A DNA stretch of 64,000 nt from an uncultured euryarchaeote (GTDB lineage Archaea; Thermoplasmatota; Poseidoniia; Poseidoniales; Poseidoniaceae), in the NCBI GenBank assembly GCA_937892945.1, contig CALBIL010000096.1, positions 52,489-116,488 on the forward strand, given 5' to 3'. Below the pieces are notes generated by a model, which saw nothing but the letters and a program-made list of their open reading frames with translations, did not search any database and was not told where the DNA came from. The position numbers and the translations under genes are program-made. Below are positions 14,916 through 19,138 of the stretch, piece by piece. The number at the start of each line of letters is the position of its first letter. The stretch's first letter is position 1.

Positions 14916-15149
14916 GTGACTGTGCGCGTCAATTGGGACCGCACTCCCGTTTCAGTTCATCATGAGCAGCAAGTAGTTCTTGAATACCTAGTGCTCCATT
15001 TACGAAATAAATACGGGGTACGAAAACGTTCACTCGTGATGGAGGACCGTGATGAAGGCGGATACCTTTTTTTTATCTATCAGCCGTGTAATCCTCGTTG
15101 GATTATAGAATTCGATGAACTCAATATCGAAACGAAGGAGGATGAGTGA
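14916..15149 (+). CDS. hypothetical 77-aa protein inside the ribosomal-protein/trmJ operon
   Basis: GTG start with GAGG 7 nt upstream. Its stop overlaps the start region of the next gene. I recognise no motif. Confidence 0.45.
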   Translation: MTVRVNWDRTPVSVHHEQQVVLEYLVLHLRNKYGVRKRSLVMEDRDEGGYLFFIYQPCNPRWIIEFDELNIETKEDE

Positions 15150-15151
15150 AC

Positions 15152-15991
15152 ATGGGCGATCGACTAACTCTCCCACTTCCTCGTCGGAATTATTCTTTGC
15201 ACATTATTTTGGTTGGAGCGTCTCATCCTGGCAACCTTGGTGCAGTGTGTAGAACAATGCTGAATTATGGCTTTGATTCACTCCGTCTTGTTTCACCTAC
15301 TTGCTCTCCTGATGATATTGAGGCTAGGAACCGAGCAAAGCACGCTGGGCGAATCCTCGATAAGTGTCAAGTCTTCGATACGCTTGAAGCAGCAACAATC
15401 GATTGTAGTTTGACAATTGGAACTTCAGGCAAGCGTGAGATTGGTGCCAAAACGACTTTTCGGCATTTCACTTATCCGTGGGAAATGGCAGAACGTTTGG
15501 ATACATTTACAGAATCCGTATCTCTTGTATTTGGTGAAGAAGGAAAGGGACTCTCTACAGAGTCACTTGCACTCTGTGATTTCTTGGTGACATTGCCAAC
15601 ATGGGAAGGTTATCCAATAGCCAATTTATCTCATGCAGTGAATGCGTGCGTCTATGAATTACATCGCTCAACTGTACAATCCACGCAGGGTTCGAATCCT
15701 GGCATCCCTGATATCGTTCCACTCGAACGAAGTATGAATCCTACATTGAAGAGCATTCTCCATCAAGGGATTTTTGAATTTGGCCAAGTCTTACCAGGCA
15801 ATGATGAGCGAAGAGAAAGTTTTTCTCATAATTTGAGGCGGAATCTAATGCGTTCCATGCCCACAGACGACGAGGCTACGCGACTTATAGGTGGTATTCT
15901 TGATGCAACAACTGCCCTTCAATATGTGGCTGGTAATGCTGAATGGAAAAGCGAACGCCGAAGGAAGATTACCCGTAATGAAGAAGAGTGA
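15152..15991 (+). CDS. trmJ: SPOUT (SpoU/TrmH-family) tRNA 2'-O-methyltransferase, TrmJ-like
   Basis: HIILVGASHPGNLGAVCRTMLNYGF, LVFGEEGKGLS and YPIANLSHAVNACVYEL are SPOUT motifs 1-3, followed by a C-terminal extension as in TrmJ. GGAGG lies upstream. The start is ATG 15152 or GTG 15146. Confidence 0.8.
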   Translation: MGDRLTLPLPRRNYSLHIILVGASHPGNLGAVCRTMLNYGFDSLRLVSPTCSPDDIEARNRAKHAGRILDKCQVFDTLEAATIDCSLTIGTSGKREIGAKTTFRHFTYPWEMAERLDTFTESVSLVFGEEGKGLSTESLALCDFLVTLPTWEGYPIANLSHAVNACVYELHRSTVQSTQGSNPGIPDIVPLERSMNPTLKSILHQGIFEFGQVLPGNDERRESFSHNLRRNLMRSMPTDDEATRLIGGILDATTALQYVAGNAEWKSERRRKITRNEEE

Positions 15992-16441
15992 TCAAGGAAT
16001 CCAAGATGCAATGCTCTTCGGAGTCTCACGTACATGCATGGCGATGAGTTTCAATCGATTTCCGTAGGCTGTTGAAATATGAGGCTGCACCTGTTCAAAT
16101 GCCCACTTTGCGAGATTCTCTGCCGTAGGAATAAACGGTACCACGACCGTTCGATGCCCTTCACCCATTGCATCACAAGCCTTTCTTGCTTCTGAATCTC
16201 CTTCATACACTACAAATGCGTGATCGACGACGTCATGGACATGTTCCATGAGTATGGCACTCACATCGGAAAAATCCATCAACATTCCTTCCTCGCTCAC
16301 TCCAGGTTCTTGGACTGTATCTCCTTCGATTTCTGCTTCAAATCGGTAACGATGTCCATGCATATGCCGACATTTACTTTTGTGGTTTGGAACTCGATGT
16401 CCTGTGTCAGTTTCTACAAATCGTCGTATACGTGTGGTCAT
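15992..16441 (-). CDS. queD: 6-carboxy-5,6,7,8-tetrahydropterin synthase
   Basis: GHRVPNHKSKCRHMHGHRYRFE zinc/catalytic motif of the PTPS/QueD family. ATGA overlap with the queC stop. Confidence 0.9.
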   Translation of the reverse strand: MTTRIRRFVETDTGHRVPNHKSKCRHMHGHRYRFEAEIEGDTVQEPGVSEEGMLMDFSDVSAILMEHVHDVVDHAFVVYEGDSEARKACDAMGEGHRTVVVPFIPTAENLAKWAFEQVQPHISTAYGNRLKLIAMHVRETPKSIASWIP

Positions 16442-17589
16442 TCTTCCATCTCCTCAAAATCTAATGATGCTGAATTTATGCAATACCTTTGCCCACCGAA
16501 AGCACGAGGTCCATCTTCAAAGATATGGCCTAAGTGAGCATCACACTTTGAGCATTGAACCTCAACCCGATGCATTCCATGTGTGTAATCTTCGATATGT
16601 TTGATACCTGCATCTGGATGTTCGGTATGAAACGAAGGCCAACCACATCCTGAGTCGAATTTCATTGAAGAGGTAAACAAAAGATGGCCGCAACAGATGC
16701 AAAAGTAATCACCATCTCTTTTCTCATCCCAATAGATTCCAGTAAAGGCGCGTTCAGTTGCACTTTCGCGTGTGACCAAATATTGCTCTTCCGTGAGTCG
16801 TTGCCGATAGTCCTCTTCCTTGTGTGCTTTTTCAACTGTGAGAGCATTTTGGAGCACTTCTTCCCAAGACGTTTGGTATTCAACCGGGTCAGTTAGTCCT
16901 CGACTGTGGAACGCAAGAATCCGTTCGATATCAGCACCGCTCATCCCTGAACTTCGCCCCTCTTCATCGGGATTATAGGACGTGATTGTATTGGCAAACA
17001 TGATGTTGAAATCAAGGTCCAGTTGTGTACTCGATTTCTGTGCATCTGCGAGAATTGTTGCCTTATCACCTTTTACATAGGGTAAAGTGAATGATACATT
17101 TTCACTCTCCCAATTTCCAATTGTAAATGCATGTTCAAGGGCATGGTAAAACTCAGGGCGACAATCAGGATAAATCTCATGGTCTCCCGAATGGACACCG
17201 AGAGTAATTTCAACTTTACAACTTTCTCTCGTCGAAACAGATAACGCATAGCCGTACAAAATGGAGGAAAATATGGCATTACGATTTGGAACGACAGTCG
17301 ACTTCATTTGTTCAGCCTCATAATGACCTTCCGGAATATCTTCACCACCTTGAAGAAGAGAACTTTCAAACGCACCCATGGCACTTGAAAGATCTATGAT
17401 TTTATGTTCAATATCATGCCCCTTAGATTTAAGGTATTGAATATTTAATTGCGCACGTTCAATTTCAACGCTGTGTTTTTGACCGTAATTGTATGAGATA
17501 CAATCAACTTTGTATTGATCTGCTAAGAGTCTCATCAAAAGAGCTGTAGAATCCATTCCGCCTGAGAGCGCCATCACTGCTCGCTTCAT
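16438..17589 (-). CDS. queC: 7-cyano-7-deazaguanine synthase (QueC) fused to peptide methionine-(R)-sulfoxide reductase (MsrB)
   Basis: The N-terminus MKRAVMALSGGMDSTALL (PP-loop) plus VPNRN and YPDCRPEF indicates QueC. Residues of about 259-380 carry CICCG, GCGWPSF, CSKCDAHLGHIF and RYCINS, which indicates MsrB. It is a single uninterrupted 383-codon frame. Confidence 0.85.
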   Translation of the reverse strand: MKRAVMALSGGMDSTALLMRLLADQYKVDCISYNYGQKHSVEIERAQLNIQYLKSKGHDIEHKIIDLSSAMGAFESSLLQGGEDIPEGHYEAEQMKSTVVPNRNAIFSSILYGYALSVSTRESCKVEITLGVHSGDHEIYPDCRPEFYHALEHAFTIGNWESENVSFTLPYVKGDKATILADAQKSSTQLDLDFNIMFANTITSYNPDEEGRSSGMSGADIERILAFHSRGLTDPVEYQTSWEEVLQNALTVEKAHKEEDYRQRLTEEQYLVTRESATERAFTGIYWDEKRDGDYFCICCGHLLFTSSMKFDSGCGWPSFHTEHPDAGIKHIEDYTHGMHRVEVQCSKCDAHLGHIFEDGPRAFGGQRYCINSASLDFEEMEE

Positions 17590-18249
17590 TCAGTCCACCC
17601 CCATCCACTTATGAGTTTGAAGACTCAAACGCCAAGGAGGCGTCTGCTTGACTACGGATTCAGTCATTGCAAAGTTCTTGCCATTCCATTCGACACTTTC
17701 GGTATCAATGTAGCATGGTTGTAAAAAGTGATGAGAAAACCCATCCATTAATCCATCGTAAAGTTGTAAATCTTGCCCAACATAGACACATTTGAGTTCA
17801 TCACCACTGCGTTGGCGAATTTTTACTTGAGGATACATTTGATCTTTTGGAGATATACAAATCCAATCCAGCAACCCATCTGGGATTTCAATGGTCCCGT
17901 TTGATTCACATGAGAGTTGGTATCCTCTTGATTTAAACAAACGATGAAGCGGCCATAGATCATTCAACATCGGCTCGCCACCTGTTAAAATAATTCTTTT
18001 GGATGGGTATTTCATAACTTCACCCAAAATATCAACGGCAGCCATCTCGCCAAATGTTTCGAAATCGGTATCACACCATTCGCATTGTAAATTGCATTTC
18101 CCAAAACGAATGAATACATGAGGTATTCCTGCATGTACGCCTTCTCCCTGGACGGAATGAAAGATTTCTACAATCTTGTACATAGTTCCCAAATCAGAAG
18201 CAGAATCGACGGGATGACCTCCCGAGAGTTCACATGCTGTATCGTTCAT
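17590..18249 (-). CDS. queE: 7-carboxy-7-deazaguanine synthase (radical SAM)
   Basis: FHSVQGEGVHAGIPHVFIRFGKCNLQCEWCDT cluster motif. AGGTGA sits 5 nt upstream of ATG 18249. The stop abuts the queC ATG. Confidence 0.9.
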   Translation of the reverse strand: MNDTACELSGGHPVDSASDLGTMYKIVEIFHSVQGEGVHAGIPHVFIRFGKCNLQCEWCDTDFETFGEMAAVDILGEVMKYPSKRIILTGGEPMLNDLWPLHRLFKSRGYQLSCESNGTIEIPDGLLDWICISPKDQMYPQVKIRQRSGDELKCVYVGQDLQLYDGLMDGFSHHFLQPCYIDTESVEWNGKNFAMTESVVKQTPPWRLSLQTHKWMGVD

Positions 18250-18258
18250 TAAATCACC

Positions 18259-18837
18259 TTAAAGTGGGCGAGATTGAATAAGTTGCATCAGTTCTTGCCG
18301 AGGTTCAGCCTTATCGAAAAATACACCACGCATGGCCGAAGTCGTCATTACAGAATTTTGTTTACGAACACCGCGGCAACGCATGCATCCATGCGATGCT
18401 TCAAGGATTACTGCAGCACCGAGTGGATTCAGATGCTTTTCAAGGTCATCGGCAATACCTTTTGTAATGCGTTCTTGATTTTGCAATCGATGCGCGTGTG
18501 CGTCAACAATTCGTGCTAATTTACTAATTCCAACAATCCGATCTACTGGAATGTATGCGATATGAGCTCGCCCAGTGAATGGCTGTAAATGATGCTCACA
18601 GGTCGAATGGAATTCAATATCGCGAAGGAGGACTATGCCGTCATAGCCTTCGCCATTAAATGTAGATTTAAGAAGTTCTTCAGTATCGGTAGTATAACCG
18701 GAAAAGATTTCACCCCATGATTCAATGACTCGCCTAGGTGTCTTTTCTAAGCCTTCTCGTTGAGCATCACCCTCGAGATATTCGAGCAATGTTTTGACTG
18801 CGCTTTCTGCTTCATCTTTTGTTACCATCTTCTTCAC
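18259..18837 (-). CDS. folE: GTP cyclohydrolase I
   Basis: EFHSTCEHHLQPFTGRAHIAYIP and ASHGCMRCRGV motifs. The track start is GTG 18837. An ATG at 18828 is the alternative. Confidence 0.95.
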   Translation of the reverse strand: MKKMVTKDEAESAVKTLLEYLEGDAQREGLEKTPRRVIESWGEIFSGYTTDTEELLKSTFNGEGYDGIVLLRDIEFHSTCEHHLQPFTGRAHIAYIPVDRIVGISKLARIVDAHAHRLQNQERITKGIADDLEKHLNPLGAAVILEASHGCMRCRGVRKQNSVMTTSAMRGVFFDKAEPRQELMQLIQSRPL

Positions 18838-18998
18838 TACCGTCCGTGCCGAGCATCAATTTCATCCAACTGGTCGAGAAGTTTGCGACAAGCGGTTCGA
18901 ACCGCATCCGCTAGACTCACGAATTTATGTTGGTCTCCAACATGCTTGCGCAGGTCTTCGACCAATTCCGCAGGCATGTCCAAGGAGATTTTCGGCAT
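18837..18998 (-). CDS. small ribbon-helix-helix (CopG/Arc/MetJ-like) protein, 53 aa
   Basis: ATG 18998 gives MPKISLDMPAELVEDLRKHVGDQHKFVSLADAVRTACRKLLDQL..., a beta strand followed by two helices. The stop TAG overlaps the folE GTG by 1 nt. I rejected the longer track ORF (to 19112) because the upstream part has no motif support and holds promoter-like sequence. Confidence 0.55.
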   Translation of the reverse strand: MPKISLDMPAELVEDLRKHVGDQHKFVSLADAVRTACRKLLDQLDEIDARHGR

Positions 18999-19026
18999 AA
19001 TCTGTGGTTCAGTGCAGAGCATATAA

Positions 19027-19044
19027 GTATTCGCAGGCGAATAC
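19027..19044. promoter_or_regulatory. perfect 8+8 inverted repeat GTATTCGC-AG-GCGAATAC abutting a TATA-like box; candidate operator of the RHH/preQ0 operon
   Basis: Read directly from the sequence. The arms are exact reverse complements. On the minus strand it is followed at once by TTATAT (19026-19021) and then by 22 nt to ATG 18998. Confidence 0.4.
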
Positions 19045-19138
19045 CAGAGTATTATCTGGTCAAACTGGCCTAATTTCAGTGAAATATCAACAGAATTGAA
19101 GCGAACGTTCAAAGAACTCCGTGGGTGCCAATAAATTG

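Follow-up and report, generated by a model that had tools for sequence, protein, structure and literature searches.

A 64,000-nucleotide stretch of contig CALBIL010000096.1 (assembly GCA_937892945.1, positions 52,489 to 116,488 of the forward strand), from an uncultured archaeon of the family Poseidoniaceae (order Poseidoniales, class Poseidoniia), is referred to here as the window. It carries an open reading frame (ORF) of 383 codons in which queC, for an enzyme of 7-cyano-7-deazaguanine (preQ0) synthesis, is fused in frame to msrB, for a methionine-R-sulfoxide reductase. The ORF probably encodes the bifunctional product of two merged, translationally coupled neighbours, with halves that act independently and with a QueC that comes from a lineage free of the zinc site. 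The fusion alone is ordinary, and what is new is the QueC lineage, which, to judge from the sequences compared, is most likely an undescribed one without a zinc site. QueC is a zinc metalloenzyme in published descriptions; the present lineage as a whole retains all of the catalytic residues and has no zinc ligands. The features of the ORF that bear on this point are the following.

16438..17589, minus strand: queC::msrB fused ORF, a single ATG-to-TGA frame of 383 codons, with the TGA at 16438-16440
16822..17589, minus strand: QueC domain (aa 1-256; Pfam PF06508), with a lineage-specific C-terminal helix
16909..16992, minus strand: former zinc-knuckle segment NTITSYNPDEEGRSSGMSGADIERILAF (aa 200-227), from alignment to Cys-containing relatives
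17548..17565, minus strand: PP-loop SGGMDS (aa 9-14), the ATP pyrophosphatase motif
17464..17487, minus strand: YxQxHxxE motif, here YGQKHSVE (aa 35-42)
17278..17292, minus strand: VPxRN motif, here VPNRN (aa 100-104)
17161..17172, minus strand: YPDC motif (aa 140-143)

In a 2026 survey of PF06508, C(x)8CxxCxxC still counts among the hallmarks of canonical QueC, and neither a Cys-less canonical QueC nor an MsrB fusion is mentioned (bioRxiv 10.64898/2026.04.08.717055). In the fused protein, the four ligand columns, as set by alignment to the nearest Cys-containing relatives such as P0123 (NTNTCYNPDKEGRSCGKCGSCQERLLAF), are occupied by S204 (16978-16980), S214 (16948-16950), S217 (16939-16941) and D220 (16930-16932), which gives the replacement pattern S-x9-S-xx-S-xx-D, and the loop between the first and second ligands is one residue longer than in canonical QueC. 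The only cysteines of the QueC domain are C30, C123 and C143, with none in the last 110 residues. A displaced set of zinc cysteines was considered and ruled out, as the domain has no Cys after C143. A preliminary description of this DNA, made from the sequence alone, had reported that all four QueC zinc cysteines were lost, and this was borne out; it had also placed the Cys-less segment at nt 16921-16980, correctly as to location, although the segment is slightly wider (16909-16992). In a model predicted by AlphaFold2 without metal, the former zinc-knuckle segment (aa 201-230) had mean predicted local distance difference test (pLDDT) values of 85-95.

Apart from the zinc site, the domain keeps the catalytic motifs of canonical QueC. 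The Pfam QueC family matched aa 3-228 (E 1.2e-40, 139.7 bits, cut-off 22), and QueC, SelR and a weak PP-loop family were the only Pfam matches in the fused ORF. Across an alignment of 69 fused, unfused and bacterial QueC relatives (A2), the residues S9-S14, Y35, Q37, H39, E42, L78, V100-N104, Y140-C143, K176 and Y205 were invariant, and so were the PP-loop and the other three motifs listed above. They agree with the canonical QueC signature defined by mutagenesis, which consists of SGGxDS, YxQxHxxE, VPxRN, YPDC, K165 and Y189 (bioRxiv 10.64898/2026.04.08.717055); K176 and Y205 of the fusion are the counterparts of K165 and Y189, with Y205 equivalent to the essential Y189 of E. coli.

The Cys-less motif extends well beyond the fusion. 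It was present in 20 of the 20 aligned unfused QueC proteins of Poseidoniales (about 260 aa), where it reads NTxTSYNPDxxGRSSGxSGxD[IV]ERILAFH. Over 150 distinct Poseidoniia sequences, whether fused, msrB-adjacent or msrB-less, S204 was retained in 147, S214 in 138, and S/T217 and D220 in all 150. A scan of species-representative genomes for the Cys-less motif gave at least 599 stretches, at least 546 of which encoded relatives, and the best 80 included members of Marine Group II, Marine Group III, Pirellulaceae, Planctomycetaceae, Mariniblastus and one Pedosphaera genome. There was no msrB within 3 kb of Cys-less QueC in the copies examined from Planctomycetota and Verrucomicrobiota. The bacterial Cys-less copies were also without que neighbours, except for the Pedosphaera copy, which has queE adjacent to it, and in two planctomycete genomes checked (7.7 and 6.7 Mb) the Cys-less form was the sole full-length QueC. 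The Pedosphaera metagenome-assembled genome (MAG) G401, which holds locus L129, had two full-length QueC matches (C13:13677-14357 and C187:2705-3382).

Relatives of this QueC subfamily were likewise found in at least 536 stretches of viral contigs. Among the best 80 IMG/VR loci, 63 had the pattern S, D, S, S at the ligand columns, 10 were of the query type and seven were of the four-cysteine (Cys4) type, so that 73 of these 80 were Cys-less. Many of the 80 adjoined folE and queE and none adjoined msrB; no msrB was seen near the Cys-less QueC of Marine Group III archaea or of viral contigs. The annotated QueC of Flavobacterium phage vB_FspM_immuto (MW353176) is of the S, D, S, S type, and the immuto records were the only close relatives of Cys-less type among the cultured-phage records matched; no modification data were found for this phage. 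As the same motif occurs in unfused, msrB-less, bacterial, Marine Group III and viral QueC, the loss of the cysteines is, by this distribution, independent of the fusion, and it is also wider and older than the fusion.

On the sampled QueC tree, a single change was needed between the Cys4 and Cys-less types. The bacterial Cys-less sequences formed one clade nested among archaeal sequences in a quick tree. The QueC of other Thermoplasmatota had only 30-39% identity to the query, which indicates that the Poseidoniia QueC is a separate lineage and not the ordinary QueC of the phylum. Three QueC representatives (P0229, P0233 and P0247) have Cys, Cys, Cys and Asp in the ligand columns (e.g. CGKCGSDIERLEAF), and may be intermediates toward the invariant Asp of the Cys-less type. 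Three other relatives of 650-730 aa (P0123, P0124 and P0142) are interrupted by inteins (Intein_splicing, Hint and LAGLIDADG), inserted immediately ahead of YPDC, close to the position of query aa 138-143; one of them, P0124, is of the Cys-less type. The two main families of Poseidoniales (f1 and f3) are intermixed in the QueC tree, where the family label requires nine changes over 85 rows (for example, f3 genus g23 with f1 genera g1/g2, and f1 genus g3 with f3 genus g16), which suggests either an exchange of operons inside the order or simply weak resolution of the tree.

The fusion itself is real. The exact 383-aa protein was found on at least 10 contigs, including ENA ERZ7462832 NODE_4248 at 27x coverage, and this gives the join the assembly support that had been sought. 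Both Pfam domains were present in all 120 protein clusters among the matches listed (66-90% identity), which came from JGI, ENA, NCBI, Logan and Tara. A match was found in 179 of 201 Poseidoniales species genomes, with about 100 among the matches listed spanning nearly the whole 383-aa query, and the fused loci recovered numbered 88, of which some lie on contigs longer than 1 Mb. The preliminary description was therefore right in seeing a genuine in-frame fusion, a single 383-codon frame with both Pfam domains, and its statement that it was aware of no described QueC-MsrB fusion also held, as no account of one was found in the literature searched. A search for Marine Group II together with methionine sulfoxide reductase likewise gave nothing relevant. 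A Poseidoniaceae-type queE-queC-msrB locus, near-identical to the archaeal loci, was also found on a 4.3-kb contig (CALDQY010000058.1, L099) of a 'Rhodobiaceae' MAG, and this contig was probably mis-binned.

The second half of the fused protein and its connection to QueC are made up of the following features.

16441..16821, minus strand: MsrB domain (aa 257-383), from Pfam SelR, TIGR00357 and motifs
16690-16701, minus strand: MsrB zinc pair CICC (aa 297-300)
16630-16650, minus strand: resolving-Cys motif GCGWPSF (aa 314-320)
16543-16554, minus strand: MsrB zinc pair CSKC (aa 346-349)
16525-16536, minus strand: HLGH motif (aa 352-355)
16471-16488, minus strand: catalytic RYCINS (aa 368-373)
16798..16866, minus strand: continuous helix (aa 242-264) predicted by AlphaFold2 across the QueC/MsrB join

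With both CxxC pairs, GCGWPSF, HLGH and RYCINS all located, the MsrB domain is complete, as had been claimed. It matched Pfam SelR/MsrB (PF01641) over aa 265-379 (E 6e-48, 162 bits, cut-off 24.9) and scored 161.6 with NCBIfam MsrB TIGR00357, above the cut-off of 113.05. The catalytic Cys motif, HLGH and both CxxC pairs were retained in 54/54 fused and 50/50 adjacent MsrB sequences, and GCGWP in 53/54 and 41/50, respectively.

The AlphaFold2 model, built on the 69-sequence alignment, had a mean pLDDT of 93 and a predicted template modelling score (pTM) of 0.84. Its MsrB half matched 3CXK with a target-normalised template modelling score (TM-score) of 0.91 and a root-mean-square deviation (rmsd) of 1.1 Å, while its QueC half gave target-normalised TM-scores of 0.75 to 2PG3 and 0.77 to 3BL5. 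A linker of about 10 aa had been proposed between the domains; the model has no separate flexible linker, and the C-terminal helix of QueC continues into MsrB. This helix of about 30 aa belongs to the QueC of this lineage, being found in unfused relatives too, and in the fusion it runs straight into the MsrB N-terminus. The unfused relatives terminate at the equivalent of aa 256-262, and where the two genes are split, the stop of queC and the start of msrB fall at positions corresponding to about aa 256-258. The junction sequence was poorly conserved in the 69-sequence alignment.

The origin of the fusion can be followed in the arrangement of its relatives. Over 180 Poseidoniia loci (some genomes being counted twice), 88 were fused, 54 had msrB adjacent to queC, and 38 had no msrB in the examined stretch. 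The order folE-queE-queC-(msrB)-queD was kept at all Poseidoniia loci where the available stretch extended to these genes, and msrB, when present, was always between queC and queD. The QueC-only genomes were G002, G005, G029, G041, G068, G105, G126 and G155 (genera g6, g12, g13, g20 and g21); as these gave a single match, to QueC only, and had no msrB beside queC, MsrB seems to be absent from whole genera of Poseidoniales. The split forms show the junctions of coupled genes: an ATGA overlap (L015), a TGA followed at once by ATG (L032), or a TAG, three bases and an ATG (L033). Programmed read-through of an in-frame stop (genera g4 and g7) was also considered, and was ruled out, as an ATG 0-3 nt after the stop is ordinary coupling. 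The joins of the fused forms are seamless and have two junction lengths, 43 and 29 residues.

A careful tree built from QueC and MsrB joined end to end (90 rows x 364 columns, LG+C20) required three changes of the fused/split state, well-supported branches forced three changes, and none of 200 bootstrap trees was compatible with a single change. The tree contained one large, mostly fused clade holding both junction types, inside which a split group (genera g11, g21 and g23) was nested, and one fused sequence (L183) was placed beside the split g4 clade. Two independent fusions behind the two junction lengths had been suggested by a quick MsrB tree, an idea that was not kept after the careful tree; as the short-junction clade is part of that large fused clade, a secondary deletion of 14 residues is as likely. 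In the split relatives, queC and msrB are translationally coupled operon neighbours, and loss of the stop and start codons merged them. That the state is labile and that the split junctions are of the translationally coupled kind both speak for a simple merging of neighbours, and on this comparison of sequences the fusion is such a merger, with a state that has changed at least three times.

The fused ORF lies in a tightly packed operon on the minus strand, in the order folE-queE-queC::msrB-queD, and its neighbours there are as follows.

18259..18837, minus strand: folE (GTP cyclohydrolase I, zinc-dependent type), the first enzyme of the operon
17590..18249, minus strand: queE (radical SAM), whose TGA directly abuts the ATG of the fusion
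15992..16441, minus strand: queD (PTPS family), whose own ATG overlaps the TGA of the fusion (ATGA)

The source genome is 2.03 Mb and 94% complete, and in a search of this assembly the fused ORF was the sole QueC and the sole MsrB. The genome also encodes an arcTGT (768 aa, with TGT and PUA domains), and its MsrA is a separate gene on a different contig from the fusion.

From this setting, the QueC half would be expected to convert 7-carboxy-7-deazaguanine (CDG) to preQ0 in two ATP-dependent steps, and the preQ0 would feed archaeosine formation in tRNA via the arcTGT of the genome. The conserved set of Ser, Ser(His), Ser/Thr and Asp would keep together the small fold of the zinc knuckle, through hydrogen bonds or perhaps with a hard metal. 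The MsrB half would be a standard zinc-containing two-cysteine MsrB that reduces protein methionine-R-sulfoxide with thioredoxin, and the fusion would probably only fix the 1:1 co-expression of the two, with no new chemistry. We infer that the Cys-less QueC is catalytically active, since it is the sole copy, has an intact signature and a pathway context, and since the same situation is found in the two planctomycete genomes.

Several points weigh against this account. The QueC half scored 133.5 with the NCBIfam equivalog TIGR00364, below its cut-off of 150.3, and zinc is stated in the literature to be required for QueC. In the non-fused Poseidoniales genomes checked, msrB was next to queC in 17/17 of those with a second match, and was unmatched anywhere in the assembly in 8/8 of those with a single match, a linkage tighter than that of a casual neighbour, which leaves room for a functional tie. 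The predicted continuous helix, together with the pTM of 0.84, also hints that the two domains are held in a fixed arrangement, something for which a merely incidental fusion would have no need.

The tight linkage keeps alive the alternative that the two activities are functionally coupled, with MsrB repairing, in cis or locally, oxidised methionines of QueC or QueE, or making the output of preQ0 and archaeosine depend on the redox state of thioredoxin in sunlit surface water; a coupling of preQ0 synthesis to redox state or methionine repair had been raised in the preliminary description. It would fit well with the finding that the Poseidoniales examined either lacked msrB or had it fused to queC or immediately behind queC, with the position of msrB inside the operon and not at an end, with the retention of the fusion in most sampled genera of both families, and with the rigid helical connector that is predicted (pTM 0.84). 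However, the fused state is labile, with at least three changes, and its junction sequence is poorly conserved; genera such as g6, g12, g13 and g20 have no msrB match in the assembly and keep the same Cys-less QueC; and bacteria of the Planctomycetes-Verrucomicrobia-Chlamydiae (PVC) group, Marine Group III and viruses share the QueC type with no msrB nearby. The active-site methionines of the lineage (SGG[M/L]DS and M95) are, moreover, found just as often in Cys4 relatives, for which there is no link to msrB. Coupling is an unlikely alternative, although a live one. An oxidation-prone methionine specific to the lineage (SGGMDS, M95) was tried as a reason for the msrB link and rejected, because the Cys4 relatives have M95, and M or L at position 12, with the same frequency. 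All of the features can also be read jointly, such that the Ser/Ser(His)/Ser-Thr/Asp set would be a working metal-free or hard-metal (Mg/Ca/Mn) knuckle, that the isozyme would have spread through the ocean plankton, from Poseidoniia into both Planctomycetota and Verrucomicrobiota, marine viruses holding relatives of it, and that the same adaptation, to photo-oxidative surface water, would in Poseidoniales also have brought msrB into the preQ0 operon and joined it to queC more than once, the features being functionally linked though separable. As a whole, this joint reading is quite unlikely. Zinc economy, or a general avoidance of oxidisable Cys-zinc sites, is weak as a driver, since the same chain retains the Cys4 zinc site of MsrB and the operon retains a zinc-type FolE.

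It is improbable that the QueC half has ceased to make preQ0, whether as a pseudoenzyme or as an enzyme of altered chemistry that stops at the amide (7-amido-7-deazaguanine, ADG) or modifies protein, as do QatC and Cap9. The missing hallmark motif, the score under the TIGR00364 cut-off and the known repurposing of the QueC fold (bioRxiv 10.64898/2026.04.08.717055) speak for it, yet every catalytic motif lost by QatC is invariant here, conservation extends over about 55-90% identity, and the protein is the sole QueC of a genome that keeps folE, queD, queE and arcTGT, in a preQ0 operon context with no qat or CBASS (cyclic-oligonucleotide-based antiphage signalling system) genes. The preliminary description had proposed that the zinc ribbon of MsrB structurally substitutes for the lost zinc knuckle of QueC. 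Both features do occur in one polypeptide, with a defined domain arrangement in the prediction, but the proposal is contradicted by the Cys-less motif in 20/20 unfused QueC of Poseidoniales, and the identical motif in msrB-less, bacterial and viral QueC, the interleaving of split and fused forms on the tree, and the confidently modelled knuckle segment (pLDDT 85-95) leave it very improbable. As to whether fusion and Cys loss go together, Cys-less QueC was found also without a nearby msrB in PVC bacteria, Marine Group III and viruses. That two genes were joined by a sequencing error, in assembly or gene calling, might be suspected from the fact that no more than one stop codon, or a frame change of one base, separates split from fused relatives, but with the identical ORF on at least 10 contigs, both domains in more than 100 protein clusters from several sources, and 88 fused loci, some on contigs above 1 Mb, an artefact of this kind can be dismissed with near certainty. 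The merger of coupled neighbours, with a QueC that lacks the zinc site by descent, is the preferred reading.

Comparison of the fusion with known systems gives a mixed pattern of likeness and difference. Canonical QueC (E. coli QueC; B. subtilis 3BL5; Pectobacterium 2PG3; PF06508 Cluster 1) shares the fold, the catalytic motifs and the folE/queD/queE context, but the QueC of the fusion has no C(x)8CxxCxxC, and has an extra C-terminal helix of about 30 aa and an MsrB partner. The Cys-less QueC of marine viruses and of phage immuto belongs to the same subfamily, with all four Cys lost, and is often beside folE and queE; it differs in that most viral forms have the S, D, S, S pattern ('SDYKSASSVERIEAF') and their own clade, and none has msrB. 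The zinc-containing two-cysteine MsrB proteins (E. coli 6SYM; Burkholderia pseudomallei 3CEZ/3CXK) have 50-55% identity to the MsrB half, which superposes on known MsrB (target-normalised TM-score of about 0.9, rmsd of about 1 Å) and has the same motifs. Unlike free MsrB, the fused half has no start codon of its own, and its N-terminal helix is continuous with the C-terminal helix of QueC.

MsrB is likewise one module of a larger protein in MsrA-MsrB (Treponema 5FA9, Helicobacter 7E43 and Streptococcus 3E0M) and in Neisseria PilB (Trx-MsrA-MsrB). The partners in these known fusions belong to the same repair pathway, whereas in the present fusion MsrB is joined to an enzyme of nucleoside-precursor synthesis that has no known link to redox. 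GAT-QueC of Crenarchaeota joins a QueC-family domain to a glutamine amidotransferase, and its partner domain acts in the same chemistry. Both it and the fusion are two-domain archaeal proteins of the 7-deazaguanine pathway, but queC::msrB has no amidotransferase domain by Pfam, and its MsrB partner is not part of QueC chemistry. QatC has lost YxQxHxxE, VPxRN and YPDC and has qatABD neighbours, while queC::msrB keeps these motifs and has folE, queE and queD as neighbours. Cap9 has a CBASS context, and the queC::msrB model matched the Cap9 structure 9NTO only weakly.

Poseidoniales, which are widespread archaea of the marine plankton, have no QueC other than that of this lineage, and the same holds for some marine Planctomycetota. 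Should the enzyme be active, the QueC zinc site must be structural and replaceable, and a working replacement would mean that this 'hallmark' site is dispensable. The fusion, for its part, is a clean, datable case of operon neighbours merging and then splitting again. Fused proteins (e.g. P0030, P0064 and P0046) are annotated by NCBI only as 'peptide-methionine (R)-S-oxide reductase MsrB' and by JGI only as '7-cyano-7-deazaguanine synthase', single-function names that cause automated pathway reconstructions to miss one of the two functions.

Two further ORFs flank the operon in the window. A small ORF (18837-19112, minus strand) lies immediately upstream of folE, its end meeting the folE start. 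On the other side, a 281-aa ORF (15146-15991, plus strand) is convergent with queD, the ends of both genes meeting, and its counterpart on the identical ENA contig matches SpoU_methylase, so that a tRNA-modification gene abuts the preQ0 operon.

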